Virus record (IMG/VR): IMGVR_UViG_2140918032_000035 | Length of the DNA: 64,000 nt | From: an uncultured virus (IMG/VR IMGVR_UViG_2140918032_000035) | Taxonomy: Duplodnaviria > Heunggongvirae > Uroviricota > Caudoviricetes | Strand: one strand, 5' to 3' | In this document: in pieces, positions 1,801 through 27,991 of the stretch | Layout: every line of letters begins with the position of its first letter | How positions within the stretch are numbered: position 1 is the stretch's first letter | Notes under the pieces: generated by a model | Databases searched by the model: none | Seen by the model: only the letters and a program-made list of their open reading frames with translations | What the model was told of the DNA's origin: nothing | Position numbers and translations under genes: made by a program

Positions 1801-2037
1801 ATTGATAATGTAACAAGTTATGCAATATGCACAACAAACCTTGAGATATTTCAGCATAATAATGTAACACAAAATGCAAAATCCGCTTTGAAAATGTAAC
1901 AGGTTGCGTTATACTTATGTTAGCCTCCTTAAAGAAGAATGACCGCAGGGAAAATCTCCTGCTTCGTGATAATACTCAATATCTCTCTGCGGTCTTTCTC
2001 TTCTTTTCTTTAACACATCAGACGAAAGGAAACGCTT

Positions 2038-8637: not shown

Positions 8638-8666
8638 TTGAAAAGTTACGCCCAATGGGCTATACT
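8638..8666 (+). promoter_or_regulatory. SigmaA promoter with the same palindromic operator as at 6550
   Basis: TTGAAA-17-TATACT; spacer contains GCCCAATGGGC. Confidence 0.8.
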
Positions 8667-8706: not shown

Positions 8707-9027
8707 ATGGTAGATTTGAAGGTCTTTAATTGGTACTGCAACGGTCAGCTGACTGCTGTTGTTACTGCTGATTATACTCACAAGACGGTCGAGGTGAAGA
8801 ACCTTGTAAGCGACAGTTACTATCTGCCGTTTGCACCTGATGTTAAGCCCTCGTTTTCGCAGTGGCAGGCGGTTCTGAAGAGTCATTGCCCTTCCAAGAA
8901 TAATGCGTTCATAGATCAGTTCCTTGAGAGCATCGGTTTAGACCATTATGATGTTTTGGATATAATCAAGAAGACTAATGGCAAGGCTTATCACAGCCCT
9001 TGCACGATCGAGCTGATGGAGGGCTGA
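8707..9027 (+). CDS. HipA N-terminal/HipS-like partner of the downstream kinase
   Basis: LKSHCPS...LESIGLDHYDVLDIIKKTNG pattern typical of small genes upstream of HipA-like kinases. Confidence 0.6.
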   Translation: MVDLKVFNWYCNGQLTAVVTADYTHKTVEVKNLVSDSYYLPFAPDVKPSFSQWQAVLKSHCPSKNNAFIDQFLESIGLDHYDVLDIIKKTNGKAYHSPCTIELMEG

Positions 9028-17801: not shown

Positions 17802-18623
17802 TTACTGACTGAGTAGGTCGGCTACGGAGATGTCGATCTCCGGTGCCTTGGTCGCAGGACAATTTCCCTTACCTGCACAGAACGCGCAATGGTGTCCGGC
17901 TTCGAACTGTCCTTCGTTTCTGATGGCCTGCATTACTCTGACATTCGTGTCAGCCGCCCAAGCCTTCAGTTCCGCTACGCTGAGCTTATCATGCGAGATC
18001 GCTCCGGTCGTCGGCAGGCTTCTTGCAAAGCCGCTTGAGTAATCCGTAGTTGCTCTCGGCTGAAAGATGTAGAACTCTACATCCTGGATGTTCTTTCTCT
18101 CGTGCTCAGGCAGTGAGAGATAAGCACCCAACGAGTAAGCTCTCAGCTGGTAGTTCCCGGTTGCAGATACCAACGCGTGTCCATACTTATAGTCAACGAC
18201 CGTGATCTTGTTAGGTGAGACCAGGAAGCAGTCGCAAGTACCCCAGCATTCTGAAATGTACTTGGTCATGTCGATCTTTGTCTCGGTACAGACCTTGGTG
18301 TATCCGCCACCCTGGTATAAACGCAGAATGAAATCCCTGTATGCCGCACCGCAGATCTTCATTGCTCTATCGGCACGCTTCGCTTCTTCGACTGAGTCCG
18401 GCTGAAGGGGAAGACCAAAGGCTTCGTTGACCATATTCTCGGCAACAGCATGAGCCGTTGTTCCTTCCTTGGCTGCTTCGGATGTTGTCTCTCCGTGCTC
18501 AAGGCGGTAATCTTCATTGACCTTCAGGGACTTTGTGCAAGAAACTATCCTGACAAGCGAAGAAGGGGACACTAACGCGTGTTCCCTCTGTACGATCGAT
18601 TCTGAACTTGTCTGGTTAGTCAT
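17802..18623 (-). CDS. Cas4-like PD-(D/E)XK nuclease (DUF2800 family)
   Basis: HALVSPSS...C, EGTTAHAVAE, WGTCD, VVDYKYG, QLRAY, HCAFCAGKGNCP. Confidence 0.88.
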   Translation of the reverse strand: MTNQTSSESIVQREHALVSPSSLVRIVSCTKSLKVNEDYRLEHGETTSEAAKEGTTAHAVAENMVNEAFGLPLQPDSVEEAKRADRAMKICGAAYRDFILRLYQGGGYTKVCTETKIDMTKYISECWGTCDCFLVSPNKITVVDYKYGHALVSATGNYQLRAYSLGAYLSLPEHERKNIQDVEFYIFQPRATTDYSSGFARSLPTTGAISHDKLSVAELKAWAADTNVRVMQAIRNEGQFEAGHHCAFCAGKGNCPATKAPEIDISVADLLSQ

Positions 18624-18685
18624 AAGCGTTTCCTCTGCGTAATTTTGTTAAAGTACGATGTTCTCCGTTTCAGGTGAACAACTAT

Positions 18686-18714
18686 ATTATAACCTGACAT
18701 AAACAGTTTTTCAA
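18686..18714 (-). promoter_or_regulatory. SigmaA promoter of the nuclease-SSB operon
   Basis: TTGAAA-17-TATAAT on minus strand. Confidence 0.8.
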
Positions 18715-18789
18715 GTGAAAACAGTCCGTTTAATATCCCTCATTGGCAGATAAGAAAGAAAAATCATCGGATTTCTCTGTGCGGGCATT

Positions 18790-18826
18790 AAAAAAAGGGC
18801 CCCTCCCGTGCCTAAGGAAGAACCCT
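18790..18826 (-). terminator. Terminator of the tRNA array
   Basis: AGGGTTCTTCC...GGGAGGGGCCCT hairpin + T-run just after the last tRNA. Confidence 0.85.
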
Positions 18827-18829
18827 CGA

Positions 18830-18919
18830 TGGCGCTGACACCGGGACTCGAACCCAGAAACCGCTTTCGCGATCACGGTTTAGCGGACCGCCGCCTTACC
18901 ACATTCGGCTCATATCAGC
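18830..18919 (-). tRNA. tRNA-Ser(GCT)
   Basis: Cloverleaf, long variable arm, loop CC-GCT-AA (C33), encoded CCA. Confidence 0.9.
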
Positions 18920-18922
18920 ATT

Positions 18923-18996
18923 TGGCACCCGCACAAGGAGTCGAACCTCGCTCTGTTGGTTCAGAGCCAACCGTACTACCGATGTACCATACGGGT
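18923..18996 (-). tRNA. tRNA-Gln(CTG)
   Basis: GTTGG-CTCTGAA-CCAAC, TTCGA loop, CCA. Confidence 0.9.
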
Positions 18997-19000
18997 GTAT

Positions 19001-19093
19001 TGGCGTTGCAGACAGGAATCGAACCTGCATGTCTTCCTTTGGGGACGACTGCCTGATCTCCAATCAGGTGCTCCACCGTTGAGCGACTGCAAC
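19001..19093 (-). tRNA. tRNA-Ser(GGA)
   Basis: CCTGA-TTGGAGA-TCAGG, long variable arm, G73 CCA. Confidence 0.9.
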
Positions 19094-19101
19094 ATTTATA
19101 A

Positions 19102-19186
19102 TGGCGCTGCACACAGGATTCGAACCTGCAAGTCATTGCTGACCAAGTGCCTTCAAAACACCGTCCTCACCGCCCGGACATGCAGC
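19102..19186 (-). tRNA. tRNA-Ser(TGA)
   Basis: GGTGT-TTTGAAG-GCACT, long variable arm, G73 CCA. Confidence 0.88.
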
Positions 19187-19191
19187 GTATC

Positions 19192-19267
19192 TGGAGCTCA
19201 CAGTCAGGCTCGAACTGACGACTTCATCCTTACCATGGATGCACTCTACCTGCTGAGTTATGCGAGC
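19192..19267 (-). tRNA. tRNA-Thr(GGT)
   Basis: CATCC-ATGGTAA-GGATG, CCA. Confidence 0.92.
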
Positions 19268-19270
19268 ATT

Positions 19271-19358
19271 TGGCGCCAGACGGAAGTGACGACCTCCATA
19301 CCTTGCGGTACCACACGCTTTCGAGGCGGTGACCAGCAGCCGGCTGGCATCATCTGGC
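19271..19358 (-). tRNA. Non-canonical tRNA-Ser(CGA), Sec-like/allo-tRNA-like fold
   Basis: 8-bp acceptor possible, 6-bp D-stem, bulged anticodon stem, long variable arm, atypical T-loop, G73 CCA. Confidence 0.72.
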
Positions 19359-19369
19359 ATTATTGTTTT

Positions 19370-19443
19370 TGGCGGCCCTTGCGGGAGTCGAACCCACCTC
19401 CGAGGTGTCAAAGTCCCCTGTTCTTCCGATGAACTAAAGGGCT
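19370..19443 (-). tRNA. tRNA-Gln(TTG)
   Basis: Loop CT-TTG-AC, 1-72 mismatch, G73 CCA. Confidence 0.87.
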
Positions 19444-19505
19444 GTTACTAACATAATCTTTGAATAGTAACTCGGAGACTGTTACTATCCGAAAACTATG
19501 TTACC

Positions 19506-19581
19506 TGGTACTCCCGACAGGGCTCGAACCTGCAGCTGTCCCGTTCGTAGCGGGGTAGTCTTCCCATTGGCTTACAGGAGC
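19506..19581 (-). tRNA. tRNA-Arg(ACG)
   Basis: CCCG-CTACGAA-CGGG, CCA. Confidence 0.9.
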
Positions 19582-19615
19582 ATCTGTACCTTTATTCGTA
19601 CAGGACTTTTCTGTG

Positions 19616-19689
19616 TGGAGCATCCTGTGAGAGTTGAACTCACTGAAAACAGTTTTGCAGACTGATCGCCTTCCGCAGACAAAGGATGC
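19616..19689 (-). tRNA. tRNA-Cys(GCA)
   Basis: CAGT-CTGCAAA-ACTG, U73 CCA. Confidence 0.85.
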
Positions 19690-19693
19690 GTCT

Positions 19694-19768
19694 TGGCACC
19701 GGCACGAAGAATCGAACTCCGGATTTCGGTTTTGGAGACCGCTGTGTTACCACTATCACTATACCGAT
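19694..19768 (-). tRNA. tRNA-Trp(CCA)
   Basis: CGGT-CTCCAAA-ACCG, G73 CCA. Confidence 0.92.
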
Positions 19769-19772
19769 GTGT

Positions 19773-19848
19773 TGGTAGGAACACCAGGACTTGAACCCGG
19801 GGCCGATCGGATATAAGCCGACTGCTCTACCGACTGAGCTATGTTCCT
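19773..19848 (-). tRNA. tRNA-Ile(TAT)
   Basis: GTCGG-CTTATAT-CCGAT, canonical D/T arms, A73 CCA. Confidence 0.88.
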
Positions 19849-19893
19849 ATGTTTCACAGAACTGTGAACCTTTTCACGGATCCGTGAGATACT

Positions 19894-19968
19894 TGGTGGT
19901 AACGGCAGGAGTCGAACCTGCTTATCCTCGCTTATCAGACGAGTTCCTGACCGGTCGGACACGGTACC
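19894..19968 (-). tRNA. tRNA-Ile(GAT)
   Basis: CTCGT-CTGATAA-GCGAG, CCA. Confidence 0.9.
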
Positions 19969-19976
19969 ATAATATC

Positions 19977-20051
19977 TGGTGGGCACGAAGGGAGTCGAAC
20001 CCTCATCTCACGGATTAAAAGTCCGCTGTTCTTCCATTAAACTACATACCC
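19977..20051 (-). tRNA. tRNA-Lys(TTT)
   Basis: GCGGA-CTTTTAA-TCCGT, CCA. Confidence 0.92.
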
Positions 20052-20126
20052 ATCATAGAAGAGCTGCAATATCGTTTCATCTTCATCTTCGTTGTTCTCC
20101 TTTCTTCAGAACTTTAGATCTTTGAT

Positions 20127-20212
20127 TGGTGGGAGAGGAGGGAATCGAACCCCCGGAGTCTCTGACAACGGATTTACAGTCCGTCCCGCTACCAGCTACG
20201 GTTTACTCGCCC
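20127..20212 (-). tRNA. tRNA-Tyr(GTA)
   Basis: ACGGA-CTGTAAA-TCCGT, variable arm, CCA. Confidence 0.92.
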
Positions 20213-20218
20213 ATATTT

Positions 20219-20454
20219 GCGTTCGGGCCCGCGTACTTATCATACGCTTAGACTCTCATCGGGTATCCGAACTATACAGCAGTTTTAAGTCCCCTGTACG
20301 ACTTGGTCAGCGGAGCAGCGTCTCACTGCATCGCCGGGTTCCCTAACCCGGGTTCTTTGTCACGGCCGATCATTCCGTCAAGTCTTCTGTCAGTTGCCTT
20401 GAACCACCATCGCGCGTTAAGCAGCAGGGCCGACGAGACTGTTGAACTATCCGC
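20219..20454 (-). ncRNA. Unidentified structured RNA in tRNA-array spacer
   Basis: Nested helices GCGGA/TCCGC, GTCTCG/TGAGAC, CCGGGTT/AACCCGG, GTACAG/CTGTAT, GTTCGG/CCGAAC, GCGTA/TACGC. Confidence 0.45.
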
Positions 20455-20457
20455 ATG

Positions 20458-20531
20458 TGGACCGCCATAAGGGATTTGAACCCTTACAATCTGCTTGGAA
20501 GGCAGAGGTGCTGCCATTACACCAATGGCGG
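20458..20531 (-). tRNA. tRNA-Gly(TCC)
   Basis: TCTGC-CTTCCAA-GCAGA, U73 CCA. Confidence 0.92.
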
Positions 20532-20535
20532 ATGT

Positions 20536-20610
20536 TGGGAGGAGATCAGGGACTTGAACCCTATCCTGCAGTGCCACAAACTGCCGTGCTGCCCTTACAC
20601 TAATAACCTC
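20536..20610 (-). tRNA. tRNA-His(GTG)
   Basis: GCAGT-TTGTGGC-ACTGC, G-1:C73, CCA. Confidence 0.88.
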
Positions 20611-20615
20611 ATATT

Positions 20616-20691
20616 TGGTGGCAGGAGCGGGAATCGAACCCAGCGTAACCGAGATTATGAGCCTCGTTTGGAAACCAACATCCTTCCTGCT
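20616..20691 (-). tRNA. tRNA-Met(CAT), initiator-like
   Basis: CGAGG-CTCATAA-TCTCG; A1:C72 mismatch. Confidence 0.82.
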
Positions 20692-20697
20692 ATGTTG

Positions 20698-20771
20698 TGG
20701 AGCAAGTAAAGAGAATTGAACTCTCATTCCAGACTTGGCGAGCCTGTGTTCTACCGTTGAACTATACCTGC
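20698..20771 (-). tRNA. tRNA-Gly(GCC)
   Basis: CAGGC-TCGCCAA-GTCTG (C33), U73 CCA. Confidence 0.9.
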
Positions 20772-20774
20772 ATA

Positions 20775-20919
20775 GCTACCCGAAGCCGTCGCGAACGGAT
20801 CCGGGGATTAACTTCCGTCCGGGAACACGACTCCCGGCCTTTGACGGCAAAGTTTAGTGCCGGCTCTTACGGTGTTGGCAACCGGTCAGACCTTATTGTA
20901 CTGAGCCGCTGACTGACTC
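20775..20919 (-). ncRNA. Unidentified structured RNA (pseudoknot + three-way junction)
   Basis: GTCAG/CTGAC stem whose loop CGGCTC pairs with downstream GAGCCG; then GCCGTC/GACGGC closing CCGGGA/TCCCGG and ACGGA/TCCGT. Confidence 0.45.
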
Positions 20920-20996
20920 TGGTACCCAGAGTGGGGATCGAACCCACGACTTTCTGTTTGTAGGACAGACACTCTCCCGTGCTGAGTTATCCGGGC
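20920..20996 (-). tRNA. tRNA-Val(TAC)
   Basis: TCTGT-CCTACAA-ACAGA (C33), CCA. Confidence 0.9.
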
Positions 20997-21000
20997 TTAT

Positions 21001-21158
21001 CTGATCCTCACCGATCGCCGATCGTTCATGACCAACCGACAGTCAGTTCGGACTTGAGTTTGATCAGTTCTGCAGAACAGGCAGTTCTCTCTGCCGCAAC
21101 CCTAACCACGCTCAGTTGCTTATGCGTCCTAATACACTCTCTTAACGCAATTCCGTGC
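21001..21158 (-). ncRNA. Unidentified multi-hairpin RNA in tRNA-array spacer
   Basis: TGCGT/ACGCA, GCAAC/GTTGC, GGCAG/CTGCC, CTGATC/GATCAG helices. Confidence 0.35.
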
Positions 21159-21234
21159 TGGTGGACCACACGGGGATCGAACCCGCCATCTCAAGTTTGC
21201 AAAACTCGTGTCACCCCATTGCGACTTCTGGCCC
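21159..21234 (-). tRNA. tRNA-Ala(TGC)
   Basis: CGAGT-TTTGCAA-ACTTG, G3:U70, A73 CCA. Confidence 0.9.
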
Positions 21235-21280
21235 ATACGGTACCCCTTCTTTTGAAAGGAGATTAGGGAGTAGAACCTTT

Positions 21281-21355
21281 TGGAGCTTCCCGTGAGAATC
21301 GAACTCACACAATCTTGATTACAAGTCAAGCGCAGTACCATTGTGCCAGAGAAGC
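21281..21355 (-). tRNA. tRNA-Thr(TGT)
   Basis: CTTGA-CTTGTAA-TCAAG, CCA. Confidence 0.92.
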
Positions 21356-21363
21356 ATATAAGT

Positions 21364-21483
21364 TGGTGCGGATGGATCGGACACTACCCCGTCGTCGTCA
21401 TCAAGGACACTTGTGCACTTAATCCCTTTCAGACTTCCGAGTTGGACCTCGGACTGCTTGTGCTTCTTGCTGCTACATCCAGC
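21364..21483 (-). ncRNA. CCA-ended tRNA-like RNA of unknown type (120 nt)
   Basis: Terminal stem GCTGGATG/CATCCGC + ACCA; internal TCCGAG/CTCGGA hairpin; no canonical T-loop or anticodon arm. Confidence 0.5.
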
Positions 21484-21560
21484 TGGTACCTGACCAGGGC
21501 CTCGAACCCTGAGGAAGTGAGGTTTGAGCTCACTATGTCTGCCTCTTGCATCAGTCAGGC
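21484..21560 (-). tRNA. tRNA-Leu(CAA), short variable arm
   Basis: GTGAG-CTCAAAC-CTCAC, Leu-type D-loop GGCAGAC, A73 CCA. Confidence 0.87.
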
Positions 21561-21591
21561 TTGTTTGAAACCGAGCGTTCCGGTTTCGGTG

Positions 21592-21668
21592 TGGCACCTC
21601 GACAGCGGCTCGAACGCTGAACCCGCAATTTAGAAGACTGCTGCACTTTCCATTTGTGCTACCGAGGT
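21592..21668 (-). tRNA. tRNA-Arg(TCT)
   Basis: GCAGT-CTTCTAA-ATTGC, CCA. Confidence 0.9.
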
Positions 21669-21747
21669 TGGTACCCGAGGAGGGAGTCGAACCCTCAAAA
21701 GACCTGGATCCTTAGTCCAGCGCATACGCCAATTCTGCTACACGGGC
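21669..21747 (-). tRNA. tRNA-Leu(AAG), short variable arm
   Basis: CTGGA-CTAAGGA-TCCAG, A73 CCA. Confidence 0.87.
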
Positions 21748-21869
21748 TTATTTCGTCCTTCTTTATTGTCCAGGCAAAAGGACGGGGAGGAAAACCTGAG
21801 AGGTAAAACAAGTCTTGCACCTGCATCTCCGTCTGCCCGACGGTGTTCTTGCTTTTGAACTACTTACCT

Positions 21870-21945
21870 TGGTGGAAGCAGAGGGACTCGAACCCTCAGA
21901 GCGTCGGGTTTAAGCCGAGCTTGTCTGCCATTGCACCATACTTCC
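21870..21945 (-). tRNA. tRNA-Leu(TAA), short variable arm
   Basis: TCGG-CTTAAAC-CCGA, A73 CCA. Confidence 0.87.
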
Positions 21946-21949
21946 ATTT

Positions 21950-22025
21950 TGGTATCCCTGAGAGGATTCGAACCTCCAACTTTACGGTTCTGAGCCGCTT
22001 GCGTCTGCCGTTCCGCCACAAGGAT
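21950..22025 (-). tRNA. tRNA-Leu(CAG), short variable arm
   Basis: GCGG-CTCAGAA-CCGT, D-loop GGCAGAC, A73 CCA. Confidence 0.87.
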
Positions 22026-22100
22026 AGGTTGTTGCAGTAAGCAGTTTCCCGGTCACCTTCGAAGCGAAAGCTCTGCGTTAGAGGACTTACATACTGCATT

Positions 22101-22180
22101 TGGTGGCACCTGCCGGATTTGAACCGAGCGAATACAGGTTTGAGAGACCTGCGAGTTTGACCTGACTTCTCCAAGGTGTC
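22101..22180 (-). tRNA. tRNA-Glu(CTC)
   Basis: CAGGT-CTCTCAA-ACCTG, CCA. Confidence 0.85.
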
Positions 22181-22182
22181 AT

Positions 22183-22261
22183 TGGTGGCGCGTGTGGGAT
22201 TTGAACCCAACGAATACCGGATTGAAAGCCCGGCGAGTTAAACCAACTTCTCCAACGCGTC
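22183..22261 (-). tRNA. tRNA-Glu(TTC)
   Basis: CCGGG-CTTTCAA-TCCGG, CCA. Confidence 0.87.
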
Positions 22262-22265
22262 ATAG

Positions 22266-22342
22266 TGGTCCGAGTAGTAAGATTTGAACTTACGGCTTCC
22301 TGGTCCCTGGCCAGGCACTCTTCCAAACTGAGCTATACCCGG
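22266..22342 (-). tRNA. tRNA-Pro(AGG)
   Basis: CCTGG-CCAGGGA-CCAGG (C33, A34), C1:G72, A73 CCA. Confidence 0.87.
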
Positions 22343-22347
22343 ATATT

Positions 22348-22425
22348 TGGCGACTCTGACCGGACTCGAACCGGCGATCTCCTGCGTGACGGGCAGGCGG
22401 ATTTACGCTACTTTCCCACAGAGCC
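22348..22425 (-). tRNA. tRNA-Asp(GTC)
   Basis: CCTGC-CCGTCAC-GCAGG (C33), G73 CCA. Confidence 0.9.
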
Positions 22426-22432
22426 GTATAAG

Positions 22433-22549
22433 TGGAGGGGAGCAGAGGACTTGCACCTCGTTCTGCATTGTTGACCAAGTAATACACCGTGCTGACTCCG
22501 TCTGTTACTTGATGGTCTCATCAAGTCCGTTTCGGTCTTGGAACTCCCC
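22433..22549 (-). ncRNA. CCA-ended tRNA-like RNA with acceptor stem and T-arm but no D/anticodon arm (117 nt)
   Basis: GGGGAGT/GCTCCCC + TCCA; GAGG-TGCAAGT-CCTC T-like arm; internal CAAGTAA/TTACTTG helix. Confidence 0.6.
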
Positions 22550-22550
22550 T

Positions 22551-22626
22551 TGGTACCCCATGCAAGGTTCGAACTTGCGACACCCCGATTAAGAGTCGGA
22601 TGCTCTGCCAACTGAGCTAATGAGGT
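22551..22626 (-). tRNA. tRNA-Lys(CTT)
   Basis: TCCGA-CTCTTAA-TCGGG, CCA. Confidence 0.92.
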
Positions 22627-22630
22627 ATGT

Positions 22631-22706
22631 TGGTGCTCGGATCTGGTGTCGGACCAGACTATCTTGGGCTTCAACCAAGCGCTTTCACCGGATTAGCTTT
22701 CCGAGC
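22631..22706 (-). tRNA. tRNA-Phe(GAA)
   Basis: CTTGG-TTGAAGC-CCAAG, T-loop TCCGACA, CCA. Confidence 0.87.
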
Positions 22707-22755
22707 AAAGGGTTTGTAAGGTTTCTTTCTCTGTCTTTGCCTTACGAAAAGACTA

Positions 22756-22832
22756 TGGCTGGCAAGGTGGGACTTGAACCCACGACCTTTCGGTTAACGG
22801 CCGACTGCTGCTACCTGCTGAGCTACTCGCCA
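22756..22832 (-). tRNA. tRNA-Asn(GTT), first gene of the array
   Basis: TCGG-CCGTTAA-CCGA (C33), G73 CCA. Confidence 0.9.
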
Positions 22833-22858
22833 ATATGGAAATTAAGTTGTCAAGGTAC

Positions 22859-22961
22859 AATGAAAAGCCGCCTGAACTTTTCGGTTCGGACGGCTATCTG
22901 TGAGGTATTTCAATGCAAGTTTTGAATTGCAATAGAAGTTATACTAACTCATAAGCCGCCC
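22859..22961 (-). terminator. Attenuator (terminator/antiterminator) upstream of the tRNA array
   Basis: Terminator AGCCGTC.GAAC-CGAAAA-GTTC.GGCGGCT-TTTCATT; alternative pairing of GGGCGGCTTATGAG (end of leader ORF) with CTCACAGATAGCCGTCC. Confidence 0.8.
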
Positions 22962-23081
22962 GGGCGAAGTATCGCTTTCATATCCACTAATAATCGGCTG
23001 GACAGGGCAAAGTGATACTGACGCTGTATTTAACAGTGTATCGAGATGCCAATTAGATTGTATGTTCTTAAAAGTAAACAT
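22944..23081 (-). CDS. 45-aa leader peptide of the tRNA-array attenuator (not in ORF track)
   Basis: SD AGAAAGGA; MFTFKNIQSNWHLDTLLNTASVSLCPVQPIISGYESDTSPGRLMS. Confidence 0.75.
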   Translation of the reverse strand: MFTFKNIQSNWHLDTLLNTASVSLCPVQPIISGYESDTSPGRLMS

Positions 23082-23136
23082 CTTTCACTTTGTCCTTTCT
23101 TATGATCTTGTGCCGAAGTTATCCTTCAACATAAAT

Positions 23137-23165
23137 AGTATAACCACAATTTATTGTTTTTTCAA
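23137..23165 (-). promoter_or_regulatory. SigmaA promoter of leader + tRNA array
   Basis: TTGAAA-17-TATACT on minus strand. Confidence 0.82.
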
Positions 23166-23198
23166 GTCGTTTTTCGAACTTTTTTATAGAAAAAAGTC

Positions 23199-24101
23199 TT
23201 AATTGTTGCTCGGATCCTCTCCGACAGCGTCGATAGAGGACTGAATAGCCTCTTCATCAACCGTTTCAACTACTTCTGCAGTTGTCTCTTCAGCTACGGG
23301 CTCTGTCTCGAAGGTCTTAAAGTAAACAGCACATCTGACGATCCAGCAGTCTATACCTTCATCATACTGATAAGCCGTTTCCGCAAGAACATCGTCGCCT
23401 ATGCTGTACTTTATCATCTTGGTCGTTTCAGTAACGAAATGCTCAGAGGTTGCTGCGTCCGGATACTCGGATGCCATTCTGTTGTTGAGGATCTCGAATA
23501 CCTGCATTGCTCTGTCTTTATCGTACAGATGGAAATACACTTCCGCCGCACCTGCGTAGTTGGGATTGACATACGCGGTTGAGTTGCCGGCTATGATGAT
23601 GGGATCATCGTTCAGCAGGCTGAAGTCCTCGAACTCGTATCCGTACCAGCATATCATACAGACATTGTCTCTTCCGTCAACCCAGGCTCCGTCATGATAC
23701 ATTTCACTCGTATTGCACAGTTCGATGTTGAAGTCGGATCCCATTTCGGACCACACGCTCCATCCGTTACCGGCAAATCCGATCGCATCGGTAGTGCGGT
23801 CGATAATATCCTGGACATTGTCGCCGATCTGGGGCTCTGAGATATACAAAGCATCGACAATCTTATTGATCTCGGCTTCGTCGATGGTTTCTAACAGATA
23901 GTTCGATGCCCGCATCAATGCTTCCATATCATCATCGGATGCGGATGCTTCCGTGCCGTCATCAAGTACAGACAGTTCCGCTTCGCTGATGACCGTGGTT
24001 TCGTCATTTTCCGTATCCTTTGCCGGTTTTGACGGTGCTGTGCTGCACGCTGTCAGTCCTATCATTCCTGCAAGGATACCCGCAATAACTTTCTTCTTCA
24101 T
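23199..24101 (-). CDS. Acidic lipoprotein
   Basis: MKKKVIAGILAGMIGLTAC lipobox; SD AAAGGAG. Confidence 0.8.
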   Translation of the reverse strand: MKKKVIAGILAGMIGLTACSTAPSKPAKDTENDETTVISEAELSVLDDGTEASASDDDMEALMRASNYLLETIDEAEINKIVDALYISEPQIGDNVQDIIDRTTDAIGFAGNGWSVWSEMGSDFNIELCNTSEMYHDGAWVDGRDNVCMICWYGYEFEDFSLLNDDPIIIAGNSTAYVNPNYAGAAEVYFHLYDKDRAMQVFEILNNRMASEYPDAATSEHFVTETTKMIKYSIGDDVLAETAYQYDEGIDCWIVRCAVYFKTFETEPVAEETTAEVVETVDEEAIQSSIDAVGEDPSNN

Positions 24102-24171
24102 TTACTTTATTCTCCTTTACTTTGAAAGTCGGTTGTTATTCTATCATAAGCAGATAAGAAAGAAAAAGAGG

Positions 24172-24504
24172 TCACGAGAGCCTGAGTTCATCAATGCTTT
24201 GGAAGATCGGCTTTCTCGGAGGCAGTGACATTATCAGTTCGACGAACTTGTCGATCTTGTCCTTGGTATCCAGGACGATAGCATCGCCGCCTGCCATGCG
24301 GATCTCCTTCATAGTGATCCTTTGCAGTTCTCTTGCCTTTTCTCCCGGAGCCTTGGTCTCGACGAATATCGCGTATCCGTTCAGGACTACCGTTCTGTCG
24401 GGAAGACCTGAGGATCCCGACGACTCCCATTTTTCAATGAAGCCACCGTTCTCCAAGACTCTCCTTCTTAAATGCTTTTCTACTGCACCTTCCGGCTTAC
24501 CCAT
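24172..24504 (-). CDS. VRR-NUC domain nuclease
   Basis: EGAVEKHL, GLPDR, FVETKAPG, LQ motifs. Confidence 0.9.
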   Translation of the reverse strand: MGKPEGAVEKHLRRRVLENGGFIEKWESSGSSGLPDRTVVLNGYAIFVETKAPGEKARELQRITMKEIRMAGGDAIVLDTKDKIDKFVELIMSLPPRKPIFQSIDELRLS

Positions 24505-24507
24505 AAC

Positions 24508-25908
24508 TTATACCTCGAACGGCAATTCACCGGTGTCTTCTGAGAATGGCAGGCTACCATCGCCCGCCGGAGGAGTGGTGTCCTTCGGAGGCGTGGTACC
24601 AGCTGTCTTATTGCGGCAGTACAGCCTTACACGGCCGTAACCCGGCAGGTTGCCCTGTCTCTTCTTGTTATAACCGAGGATCTGAAGTTCTCTGGCGATG
24701 GATCTCGCGGTCTTGGAGTCCATCGTATGATCGTGCATACCCATCATCTCGCACCAGATCTCGTTAGTAGAGACGCACTCAACCATTTCGTGATCGTTGT
24801 CAGGGTTCTTGACATACTCGGTATAGTGAGCGAACTTGGAAGTCTTGTCTCTGGTCTCCCAATCGGCGGGACGGGGCATTCTGAGGAAAGTCTCAAGGTC
24901 GGAGAGGTTATCGTCACGGCATACATAGTTGCTGTTGATCTCTCTCTGCTGCTCTCTGATCTCTTCGTCGAGCCTCTTGTAATCGATGCCTTCACGGTAC
25001 AGAGCGACCATTTCACCGATGATGAGCTCCACAGTCTCTTCCGTTATTGTGAAGACTGATTTCTTCTGTCTCTCTGCACTGCATTCCAGGATGACGAATC
25101 TTCTGTTGTCCTTGTCCTGGAACAAGTCGCTGCTGTTATTGGTAGTACCGACGAATACTGTACGACGGGGCATAGCTTCGACATGTTTCTCGTACTTCGG
25201 GCGGTAGTCATCTACCTGAGTGGTGATGAATGCCTTTAAGGTGTTCTCGTCGGTCTTGCTGATCTGCTTCATCTCCTGGATCTCAGCAAGCCAGATGCCT
25301 TTATACAGTCTTTCGAGTGCGAGCTCTGTGCCGAACATCGAGAAGTCCAAAGTGTCATTGAAGAATGCTCCGCCGAGCTTGCCAAGGAAGGTGGACTTAC
25401 CGAGTCCCTGTTCTCCGGAGAATACGATGAATGTGTCATACTTTGTACCGGGATTAAAGGCTCTTGCGATCAGACCGTAGGTGAACATCTGGGTTACCTT
25501 TTCGGTGAACTCGGTATCTTCGCATCCGAGATAATCGACGAACATCTTACCGAGGTTCTTCGGCTTACCCTTATCGTGCCACAGCTTTTCTGCAGCTTCC
25601 AATCTCTCCAGAAGGGGATCGAATTCGTGCTCGTGGCAGGCAACTGACAGTGCTGAAGACACGAGTTCCGTGCTTACGGGCACATGGTATCTTTCAAACG
25701 ACTTCTCAATGTCGCCTCTGATGTGGGCTACTGCATTGTCGGTGACCTTATTGCCGTTGATGAACTCTTCGTTTGACCACTTGTTGTATGTGCACTGATA
25801 ATTAGCGTCGATCAGAGGTGCCACATTGGCCATTGTAAAGACGGGGACTTTGCCTCTTGAAGTTGTCTTCAGAGTAAAACTCTGAGGAATAGTAAAACTC
25901 TTAAACAT
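24508..25908 (-). CDS. VirE-like P-loop ATPase (phage primase-associated helicase)
   Basis: ARAFNPGTKYD, GEQGLGKST, EIQEM, LKAFIT, VFVGTTN, DNRRF. Confidence 0.9.
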   Translation of the reverse strand: MFKSFTIPQSFTLKTTSRGKVPVFTMANVAPLIDANYQCTYNKWSNEEFINGNKVTDNAVAHIRGDIEKSFERYHVPVSTELVSSALSVACHEHEFDPLLERLEAAEKLWHDKGKPKNLGKMFVDYLGCEDTEFTEKVTQMFTYGLIARAFNPGTKYDTFIVFSGEQGLGKSTFLGKLGGAFFNDTLDFSMFGTELALERLYKGIWLAEIQEMKQISKTDENTLKAFITTQVDDYRPKYEKHVEAMPRRTVFVGTTNNSSDLFQDKDNRRFVILECSAERQKKSVFTITEETVELIIGEMVALYREGIDYKRLDEEIREQQREINSNYVCRDDNLSDLETFLRMPRPADWETRDKTSKFAHYTEYVKNPDNDHEMVECVSTNEIWCEMMGMHDHTMDSKTARSIARELQILGYNKKRQGNLPGYGRVRLYCRNKTAGTTPPKDTTPPAGDGSLPFSEDTGELPFEV

Positions 25909-25996: not shown

Positions 25997-27991
25997 TTAC
26001 TCTTTCATGAAGAAGTCGCACTGATAACCCTCTGCTTTGAGGGGCAGTCCCGTATAGGGTTCTGCGGCAGAAGCCATTATCTTCGCGATCTCGTCAACAC
26101 ATTCAGTCGGATACTCGATAACCGCTTCGTCGTGAATGTGCATAACCACAGGGTAACCCGAATCCTGCAGTTTGCCCAAGGCTGATACCAGGATGTCCCT
26201 GGCGATTCCCTGGACGATATTCTCAAGGCACTTACCGCCATAGAGATCTGTTTCACCGCGGGCAGAACGATAAACGATCTTGTTCGTGCCCGGCTCTATA
26301 TGGATATAAGGGTAGATGAGCTTTCTCTTTGTGAGAGGAAGTTCGATCTCCAGCTGATATGCGTCATCATAAGGCAGCTTGATGCAGCTTACCGTTAACT
26401 GTGCTTCCGGACAGGTAGGTACCGTCCAGGTGCGTGTCAGAGCCTTGCGTCCGCCGTTAGGTCCCGGTATGACATCTCTGCAGAAGTCTTCGATCTTATA
26501 CCAGAAAGACTTTGTATGAGGATTGGCGTTACGCCAGGTATCTACCATCTTCTTTTCCTGGTCCTGCGACATGCCGAGTGATGAACCGCCCATTCTCTCG
26601 AATGCACCTACGCCGCCCTGGTAACCGCACGCGAGAGTGGCAACCTTACCGATCGCACGGAGTTCTGAGTTCTCGCCGTGCTTCTCGACCTTGACGGGCT
26701 TGCCTCTCAGGATAGTAAACATCTGGGCTGCCGTTTCGCAATAGATGTCCTTGCCCTGGGCAAAAGCATCCAGAACCCACTGTTCACCTGTAAGCCAGGC
26801 TGTCACTCTGGCCTCGATGGCCGAGTAATCCGCATCTGAGAATGTCTTTCCCTCGCCGGGAACGAATGCCGTGCGGATAAGTTCGCCGATGTCAGATAAC
26901 ATCGAGTAACTGAACTGCGGTTCACCCATATAGTAGGCTCTTGCCTTTGCAGGATCCTCAAAGTGATTCTTCTTGAGGTTCTGTAACTGCACGAGCTTGC
27001 TTGCAAATCTTCCGGTACCTGCGCCATAGAACTTAAAGAGTCCTCTGACTCTGTGATCGGCACAGGCGCAATCCATTATCTTGTCATACTTGGTCACTGC
27101 CGACTGAGAGAGGGAAGACCTGAGCATCAGTATCTTCTTCTTATCTTCAGGTGTGTTCGGATCGTCGCAGAGTGCCTGGGCAGCCTTTTGGTCCAAGGAT
27201 CCTTCGATGTCAAGCAGTGACTTTAATTGCGGGACGGAGTTGGTGTTGGCGATAGGCGGCTTGCCGTGGTCAGCTGCATACTGATCACAGAGGGCGATGA
27301 GAGCACCTGCACCGGTTTCCTTGAAATCGTTGGAGAGCTCTATCATCTTTTCTACCATTGCCATATCGACTGCGACACCGCGATCGTTGATACGCTCTGA
27401 GATCTGGTACTCTACAAAGAGCTTCGGATACAGGGAACGGGACATTTCGAGGAGCTTGTTCCAGATGGCACGCTCGGCTTCGACATCCTGACGGTTGTAT
27501 TCCTTGTAATCAAGCCAATCCTGATCGACGGGAATGGTACTCATGTCAACATATCTGCCGGTGGCAAACTTCTTGATAAGAGCCTTACCTCTCTTGTCCT
27601 TCTGGAAGTTGCCGGGAAGACGCAATGCCTTGCCCAACTCTTCGAGGGAACCGGGGAGGTTCAGGTAGTTGCCTAAAACGAGAGTACATCCCCAACCCTT
27701 CGGATCAATATAGTGTTCCAGGCCGTTAAACTCCTGCGAGAAGCAAATACGCTCGAACGACGCGTTGTGAATGATCTTAGGCTGGTCGGGATTTAAGATG
27801 GCTTCCTTGATGTGAAAGGGGATCTGGTCTCCGTGAGCCAGGTCTAAAGTTACTATCGGCTGGTCGTCATAAGCATAAGACATTAACTGAATGCCAAAGA
27901 CGGGAGATTCTACATATCTATATACACCCTGTTCATTCAGATCTACATCTGACTGAGTCTCTATATCTATATGTAAGATACTCTTAGCCAT
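25997..27991 (-). CDS. Phage-type family A DNA polymerase with 3'-5' exonuclease
   Basis: HIDIET, HNASFE, motif A DYSAIEARV, motif B RAIGKVATLACGY, motif C HIHDE. Confidence 0.95.
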   Translation of the reverse strand: MAKSILHIDIETQSDVDLNEQGVYRYVESPVFGIQLMSYAYDDQPIVTLDLAHGDQIPFHIKEAILNPDQPKIIHNASFERICFSQEFNGLEHYIDPKGWGCTLVLGNYLNLPGSLEELGKALRLPGNFQKDKRGKALIKKFATGRYVDMSTIPVDQDWLDYKEYNRQDVEAERAIWNKLLEMSRSLYPKLFVEYQISERINDRGVAVDMAMVEKMIELSNDFKETGAGALIALCDQYAADHGKPPIANTNSVPQLKSLLDIEGSLDQKAAQALCDDPNTPEDKKKILMLRSSLSQSAVTKYDKIMDCACADHRVRGLFKFYGAGTGRFASKLVQLQNLKKNHFEDPAKARAYYMGEPQFSYSMLSDIGELIRTAFVPGEGKTFSDADYSAIEARVTAWLTGEQWVLDAFAQGKDIYCETAAQMFTILRGKPVKVEKHGENSELRAIGKVATLACGYQGGVGAFERMGGSSLGMSQDQEKKMVDTWRNANPHTKSFWYKIEDFCRDVIPGPNGGRKALTRTWTVPTCPEAQLTVSCIKLPYDDAYQLEIELPLTKRKLIYPYIHIEPGTNKIVYRSARGETDLYGGKCLENIVQGIARDILVSALGKLQDSGYPVVMHIHDEAVIEYPTECVDEIAKIMASAAEPYTGLPLKAEGYQCDFFMKE

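Follow-up and report, generated by a model that had tools for sequence, protein, structure and literature searches.

A candidate translation-gated attenuator in front of the tRNA array of an uncultured phage

Introduction

Attenuation controls a number of amino acid operons, whose leaders include trpL, hisL, leuL, thrL, pheL and ilvL. The leader of the Escherichia coli pyrBI operon (pyrL, 44 codons) is free of codon runs; the signal there is how closely the ribosome trails the polymerase, and a ribosome that is close behind directly prevents formation of the terminator. Attenuators that depend on an upstream open reading frame (uORF) also exist in the Firmicutes, as set out in portions of two papers (PMC9226507, PMC5314783), the second of which describes leuL as a leader-peptide attenuator. 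In the same portion of the first, the uORF attenuators of vmlR, bmrCD, msrD and tlrB respond to stalling of the ribosome by inhibitors of translation (PMC9226507). Phage tRNA arrays have been tied, in sections of two further papers, to countering the depletion or cleavage of host tRNAs (PMC10264068, PMC11555353). Here we analyse the leader of the tRNA array in a 64,000-nucleotide stretch of an uncultured virus of the Caudoviricetes (IMG/VR record IMGVR_UViG_2140918032_000035), referred to below as the window, which is part of a contig of ~120 kb and carries phage replication genes on the minus strand. On this strand a promoter is followed by the sequence AAAGGA, a 45-codon open reading frame (ORF), a spacer hairpin, an intrinsic terminator, tRNA-Asn and the remaining tRNAs, in that order. 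A translation-gated attenuator of the phage tRNA operon is our best reading of this arrangement, and we give it a probability of roughly 0.4.

Comparison with described attenuators and tRNA arrays

The phage leader resembles the trp and his attenuators in having a short promoter-proximal ORF, an intrinsic terminator before the regulated genes and an exclusive antiterminator, and, as in the trp type, a ribosome that has reached the last ORF codons would in silico block the antiterminator strand and allow the terminator to form. It differs from them in that it lacks both a regulatory codon run and a 1:2 hairpin, its predicted default is read-through, the regulated genes are tRNAs instead of biosynthetic enzymes, the element belongs to a phage and there is no sequence homology. 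Compared with the leader of pyrBI the ORF is of similar length, but the sign of the response would be opposite, and the phage stop codon lies 50 nt before the terminator. Attenuators of the vmlR/bmrCD type, as portrayed in the portion of PMC9226507 available to us, likewise have a short uORF without amino acid runs, in which general stalling shifts the balance towards read-through. According to that portion, however, an anti-antiterminator makes termination their default, whereas the phage leader is predicted to adopt the antiterminator; in addition, the vmlR type is characterised there by very short uORFs (3 codons in vmlR), NusG-dependent pauses and resistance genes, in contrast to the 45 codons and the tRNA genes found here.

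T-box leaders (RF00230), which report tRNA status, likewise measure 200-300 nt and carry a terminator/antiterminator switch. We rule out a T-box in the present case, as RF00230 gives no match at E <= 1, neither a T-box sequence nor a UGGN bulge is present (the internal loop reads UA/CAGAU) and no specifier stem was recognised. Rfam gave 38 matches in the region 18000-24500, none of which falls within the leader (22858-23130).

With respect to its genes, the array is like the phage arrays of PMC10264068 and PMC11555353 in that a large tRNA set could replace host tRNAs; those papers, in the sections available, treat the function of the tRNAs, and the words promoter, terminator, attenuat- and leader are absent from the main text of PMC10264068. 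A full-text literature search turned up no account of tRNA genes or phage tRNA arrays that are controlled by leader-peptide attenuation. The sequence-only reading from which this work started had proposed a search for the same layout upstream of other tRNA arrays, and the one array so examined does not share it. This is the compact 19-tRNA array of Bacillus phage Tsamsa (upstream region 8760-9005), which also begins with tRNA-Asn; upstream of it are two TTGACA promoters and a hairpin that lacks a U-tract, and neither a leader ORF nor a terminator is present. The array of phage Gilson was considered for the same comparison and set aside, since ORFs lie scattered among its tRNAs and the two arrays cannot be compared.

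A predicted terminator/antiterminator switch upstream of the tRNA genes

The whole control element is self-contained and spans ~310 nt, with a leader RNA of 270 nt (Table 1). Its promoter, Shine-Dalgarno (SD)-like sequence, ORF, terminator and first tRNA could all be located on the minus strand at the positions given in the sequence-only reading. The terminator hairpin (22895-22858) has a stem of 11 pairs and one C/A mismatch, followed by UUUCAUU, and this mismatch caused a simple terminator scanner to miss it. In the minimum-energy fold of the leader, CGGGCGGCU (22962-22954) pairs with AGCCGUCCG (22895-22887), and UGAG pairs with CUCA. The antiterminator formed in this way uses the 5' arm of the terminator, and the two folds are mutually exclusive.

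That the last leader codons can pair with the terminator arm had been predicted in the sequence-only reading, and the calculations bear it out. The antiterminator hairpin (22965-22884) has a folding energy of -25.4 kcal/mol (z = -4.33), which none of 200 shuffled sequences matched. When both conformations were folded under constraint, as had been suggested, the antiterminator form of the full leader reached -72.9 kcal/mol, compared with -70.2 kcal/mol when the terminator was forced. The most stable duplex that the 5' arm of the terminator can form with the upstream 226 nt (-20.8 kcal/mol) was equalled in 11 of 2000 dinucleotide shuffles and in six of 283 natural windows of the element; for the 12-nt arm, four of 2000 shuffles did as well. 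The alternative pairing is thus beyond chance, and the presence of a terminator/antiterminator switch before the tRNA operon is well supported in silico. Further upstream, domain 1 of the leader (23098-23004) scored z = -2.18 and was equalled by 5 of 200 shuffles. No strand common to domain 1 and the antiterminator was found. A boxA-like antitermination site was also sought by eye, with no convincing match.

In order to model the influence of translation, a ribosome was simulated by masking a 30-nt footprint at successive codons and refolding the RNA. In the window the antiterminator stays in place for codons 5-35 and 11 terminator pairs are formed for codons 38-44; in a related locus described below (L001), the flip to the terminator falls between codons 30 and 33. 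The geometry by which a ribosome at the stop codon would cover the antiterminator strand and so favour the terminator, also part of the sequence-only reading, is reproduced in these masked folds, and a dependence of the fold on the position of the ribosome in the ORF is supported in silico. Control of the switch by the ribosome would be the most economical explanation of the layout. In the computed folds the antiterminator is complete before the 3' arm of the terminator has been transcribed, and read-through into the tRNA genes is the predicted default because the antiterminator is both more stable and completed earlier. A ribosome on the last ~8 codons or on the stop codon would cover the 5' strand of the antiterminator and cause termination, so that fast, well-coupled translation would throttle the array, and the array would be transcribed when translation is absent, slow or stalled before about codon 36. 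Such an arrangement would constitute negative feedback between translational capacity and the supply of phage tRNAs.

Conservation of the leader in related loci

A pattern search with the terminator identified two metagenome loci, L001 and L002, the former spanning the promoter, the leader and tRNA-Asn and the latter the leader from the SD-like site onward together with 21 tRNAs. For both, identity to the window is ~94% over the leader block and ranges from 86 to 98% among the aligned blocks of the array. The ORF and the alternative pairing, whose loss from homologous arrays would have counted against the sequence-only reading, are kept in these two close relatives. They retain the 45-codon ORF, the same stop position (with TAA in place of TAG), all 20 amino acids and an identical N-terminal 25 residues of the peptide, and in L001 the first pair of the antiterminator is retained as U-G after substitution of C22962 by U. 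The promoter (23165-23137) is identical in L001, and neither locus differs from the window in the terminator or in the 63 nt that lead to the tRNA. The most diverged part is the spacer after the stop codon, which is 3 nt longer in the relatives; the inner 5-bp stem of the spacer hairpin is invariant in L001 and L002, to which this claim is limited.

Eleven differences fall within the ORF, one, three and seven of them at codon positions 1, 2 and 3, respectively (binomial p = 0.039), and the five that lie outside codons 26-31 are all at third positions (p = 0.004, for a split made post hoc). Codons 26-31 form a substitution hotspot, located in the unpaired segment that links the two RNA domains, and at least four alleles of this patch, equal in length, are represented among the window, L001/L002 and additional contigs, the last of which contribute further alleles of codons 27-31 with compensating alignment indels. 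These contigs were taken from four runs and compared over the leader region; invariance is claimed for L001 and L002 only. There are no net indels inside the ORF in L001/L002 or in the contigs of runs X5, X7 and X17 (substitution totals of 25, 54 and 12, respectively), and several net indels in the spacer that follows the stop.

Other searches for relatives gave negative results: none was found in viral contigs by way of neighbouring proteins, an alignment of the 300-aa protein encoded upstream or three DNA patterns, in metagenome contigs by protein alignment, or in genome contigs with the terminator pattern. A blastn search of a phage collection returned only tRNA-sized matches in 48 records, none of them covering >=80%.

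Transcription of the leader and the array

Judging from the position of the promoter, transcription would start at approximately 23130. A promoter scan of the minus strand from 23137 to 20080 revealed no further promoter-like or consensus site, and the first 2.7 kb of the array have no consensus promoter besides the one upstream of the leader. The idea of an additional promoter in the interval from the terminator to tRNA-Asn was discarded; TTGACA is present there, but without a -10 element at 16-18 nt. The array forms a transcription unit of its own, as it is closed by a strong terminator (18827-18795) behind which the next promoter is found (18714-18686).

In two metatranscriptome libraries, each from a different study, contigs run from the leader through the terminator and the first 4-5 tRNAs (X3, record 9, 22300-23118; X17, record 1, 22338-23091), although a contig is not equivalent to a single transcript and carry-over of DNA is possible. 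These contigs are compatible with read-through. X3 does not cover 23146-23192, and DNA contigs extend past both 23118 and 23091. The two stops, which lie 27 nt apart, are at most a weak hint of a transcript start downstream of the promoter, and we do not count them as evidence.

Amino acid and codon content of the leader ORF

The leader peptide contains all 20 amino acids and is written with 35 distinct codons in 45 positions, including four Leu, five Ser and three Pro codon types as well as ATA. This part of the sequence-only reading was correct on recounting. Among other sequences of the window, all 20 amino acids occur in seven of 438 six-frame ORF starts, in one of 130 ORFs of 40-50 aa (the leader itself) and in 44 of 2929 45-codon windows of long ORFs (1.5%); the figure for random ORFs of the leader's composition is 2.1%. 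The chance rate for comparable 45-codon stretches is about 1.5-2.2%, and the all-20 content is mildly unusual. At least 35 distinct codons are found in 0.34% of the gene windows of the element and in 7.4% of random sequence, of which the codon diversity of the leader is typical. These comparisons with 45-codon windows had themselves been proposed in the sequence-only reading, and they do not favour its view of the leader as a general sensor of tRNA loss.

The distribution of residues along the ORF is also informative. It had been proposed that stalling at almost any codon before the end would free the antiterminator strand, which agrees with the masked folds for codons 5-35 and fails for arginine and elongator methionine: codons 2-36, where a stall would result in read-through, hold 18 amino acids, and arginine (codon 42) and elongator methionine (codon 44) each occur once, in the part of the ORF where a stalled ribosome would favour termination. 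Of 3046 gene windows, 7.1% have >=18 amino acids in 35 codons, as do 7.8% of random ORFs. The 30 confidently predicted tRNAs of the array can read 39 of the 45 leader codons; ordinary genes are equally readable (86%), and there is therefore no enrichment of codon coverage in the leader. Tandem residue repeats in the ORF are limited to LL and II, and there is no regulatory codon run. Any run-free leader ORF would respond to a general slowdown of translation, and the mechanism does not require completeness in amino acids. That all 20 are present is most likely a by-product of a leader which has no regulatory codon runs.

Weighing the alternatives

A number of observations weigh against control by translation. 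The SD-like AAAGGA (23098-23093) is spaced 11 nt from the ATG, whereas most genes of the element have GGAGG-type sites 6-9 nt from the start, and in the predicted fold both the SD and the AUG are base-paired within a conserved helix system. The leader contig of X17 ends at 23091 with an Illumina adapter as its loose end, which suggests an RNA whose 5' end lies 10 nt short of the AUG and which lacks the SD; such an end may mark an alternative start or a site of processing. In codon usage the ORF has a log-ratio of -4.8 bits, compared with +19.9 (standard deviation 9.3) for coding windows and -28.0 (standard deviation 12.1) for off-frame windows, and just 2.7% of coding windows score as low; the random-like codon diversity points, if anything, to weak coding constraint. 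The peptide has no homologue other than itself in 5.8 billion clusters and no true homologue among 1.84 billion representatives searched with HMMER. One hit of the latter search, P0004, is a perfect tandem repeat of 51 residues in which 9 of 21 residues were matched 17-18 times, and was rejected as spurious. We likewise found no Pfam family and no Atlas look-alike for the peptide, and dropped the idea of a TnaC-like arrest motif near W11/D14, for which the spacing differs. Survival of the ORF in L001 and L002 is to be expected in any event, since the relatives are only ~6% diverged and a stop arises from just 4.3% of single substitutions. Of the third-position changes, three are also compatible with the RNA fold: two lengthen the 12-pair helix that buries the SD, and an A/C mismatch is converted to A-U by one. 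A double change is seen in just one of 77 consensus pairs. Finally, no anti-antiterminator or pause (1:2) hairpin was found: the terminator-forced fold leaves weak local hairpins in the 5' strand, and a GCGA/UCGC hairpin is disrupted in L001. Termination would consequently need tight coupling of the ribosome within a narrow time window.

These points keep alive the rival view that the switch is real but independent of the ribosome, the 45-codon frame being incidental to an RNA- or factor-controlled attenuator such as an orphan riboswitch-like element, a site on 22962-22948 for an RNA-binding protein of the phage or the host, or a processive antitermination system that times tRNA expression. 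The pairing of SD and AUG, the substitutions that fit the fold (in L001 the changes at C25 and P26 lengthen the SD helix, A/C becoming A-U), the few covariations, the low divergence and the codon score are the reasons for retaining it; two structured domains joined by a fast-evolving unpaired linker are, moreover, the usual layout of a sensor plus expression platform, and the codon usage is not gene-like and the peptide is an orphan. We nevertheless regard this view as rather unlikely: nothing in the leader matches Rfam at E <= 1, the T-box included, no repeated protein-binding motif is apparent by eye, domain 1 shares no strand with the antiterminator, and the stop codon stands exactly where a ribosome would mask the antiterminator, with seven of the 11 differences at third positions. 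Regulation could also be lacking altogether, so that a small gene or stable leader RNA is followed by a constitutively leaky terminator which merely keeps short transcript and tRNA precursor in constant proportion. In keeping with this, the U-tract is short (four U including the one that closes the stem, then CAUU), contigs of RNA libraries bridge the terminator, the N-terminal 25 residues of the peptide are identical in the relatives, and the Tsamsa array, the one examined, does with plain promoters. Against it, complementarity to the terminator arm is unlikely to have arisen by chance and would be pointless in a fixed valve, and no family, fold or homologue could be recognised for the peptide. 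We consider this explanation unlikely.

Selection of the leader for all 20 amino acids and many codons, in line with the sequence-only reading, would make it a sensor in which the loss of almost any host tRNA, whether caused by anticodon nucleases, toxins or starvation, holds up the ribosome before codon 36, frees the antiterminator and switches on a near-complete tRNA set. All 20 amino acids are indeed present in the window and in both relatives, and most leader codons are readable by the tRNAs of the array. Against this, the 130 ORFs of such size in the window include one with all 20, which is about the number expected, Arg and elongator Met are confined to the termination-favouring zone, 18 or more amino acids in 35 codons are common, the array covers the leader codons as it does those of ordinary genes, and single codons would confer little sensitivity to partial depletion. 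We consider this version very unlikely, and prefer a leader that responds to the general state of translation.

Genomic context

The features of the locus are collected in Table 1. The nearest cultured phages are distant, with protein identities of <37% (tblastn with VapE and DUF2800). Near-identical DNA is found in runs from bovine and sheep gut; among the 24 runs listed, 20, from 11 studies, contain at least part of the stretch. The 300-aa protein encoded directly upstream of the leader unit has a lipoprotein-type signal (LTAC) and an acidic C-terminus, and belongs to no Pfam family. It has only two clusters of homologues among 5.8 billion, with identities of 97% and 43%; the 43%-identical homologue (P0003) sits on a 3-kb contig. 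Upstream of the leader ORF, an in-frame TGA is located three codons before the ATG. Other promoters of the form TTGAAA / TATA(A/C)T are present at 8638-8666 (plus strand, with the same hexamer pair as the leader promoter), 1888-1915 (plus strand), 38076-38049 (minus strand) and 18714-18686 (minus strand), and the shared hexamers suggest a single promoter class serving several phage units.

The array had been described as a complete set of 33 tRNAs. ARAGORN with default settings predicts 30, and a relaxed threshold adds six low-scoring candidates on the minus strand, such that the number is plausible but not firm. The relaxed-threshold candidates include Ser-cga (19271-19358), Ser-aga (20326-20414), Met-cat (20616-20691), Ala-tgc (21159-21234) and Ala-ggc (21800-21869), all on the minus strand. 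The Rfam score at 20619-20687 is 26.7 bits, under the threshold of 29, and L002 has a confident tRNA-Met where the window has the low-scoring Met-cat. The low-scoring candidates may be decayed or unusual tRNAs. The array of L002 also differs from that of the window in lacking Leu-taa and in having ~400 extra nt after Leu-cag. Anticodons in the array include tRNA-Ile(tat), for AUA, and three with A34 (Pro-agg, Leu-aag and Arg-acg). In the 245-nt gap between tRNA-Tyr and tRNA-Gly there is a near-threshold Rfam match to DUF3800-I (20221-20298, minus strand; 42.2 bits, gathering score 44.2, E = 4.8e-4).

Table 1. Coordinates of the tRNA transcription unit, its leader and neighbouring genes in the window.
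Feature	Coordinates	Strand	Remarks
Family-A DNA polymerase	26000-27991	-	
VapE-like helicase/primase	24511-25908	-	
VRR-NUC	24175-24504	-	
Lipoprotein-like orphan, 300 aa	23199-24101	-	directly upstream of leader unit
Sigma-70/sigmaA-type promoter	23137-23165	-	TTGAAA (23165-23160), 17-nt spacer, TATACT (23142-23137); 10/12 matches
5'-terminal leader-RNA hairpin (predicted)	23112-23130	-	7-8 pairs; kept in L001
Leader domain 1, multibranch	23004-23098	-	consensus fold: AAAGGA pairs with codons 23-26, AUG region with 23047-23041 (alignment columns 2-13 / 83-94 and 15-21 / 48-54)
45-codon leader ORF	22944-23081	-	putative coding; ATG 23081, TAG 22946-22944
Variable patch, codons 26-31	22989-23006	-	unpaired linker between two RNA domains
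Antiterminator 5' strand, codons 40-45	22948-22962	-	ends 2 nt before stop codon
Spacer hairpin inside antiterminator	22905-22944	-	40 nt; loops and flanks variable with indels
Intrinsic terminator	22858-22895	-	arms 22895-22884 / 22877-22866, U-rich tail to 22858; -15.3 kcal/mol
tRNA array	18830-22832	-	30 confident tRNAs and up to 6 low-scoring candidates
tRNA-Asn (gtt), first gene of array	22756-22832	-	starts 26 nt past terminator
Strong terminator closing array unit	18795-18827	-	next promoter at 18714-18686
DUF2800/PD-(D/E)XK nuclease	17805-18623	-	

Implications

The purpose of phage tRNA genes is an old question, and the control of their expression has barely been addressed. The self-contained element of this rumen phage is directly testable by reporter fusions. 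If the translation-gated attenuator proposed here proves true, a terminator of this kind before a tRNA operon would feed decoding performance back on the supply of tRNA. Such feedback logic is known for amino acid synthesis and for antibiotic-resistance genes, and the regulation of a tRNA array would be a new element among them.

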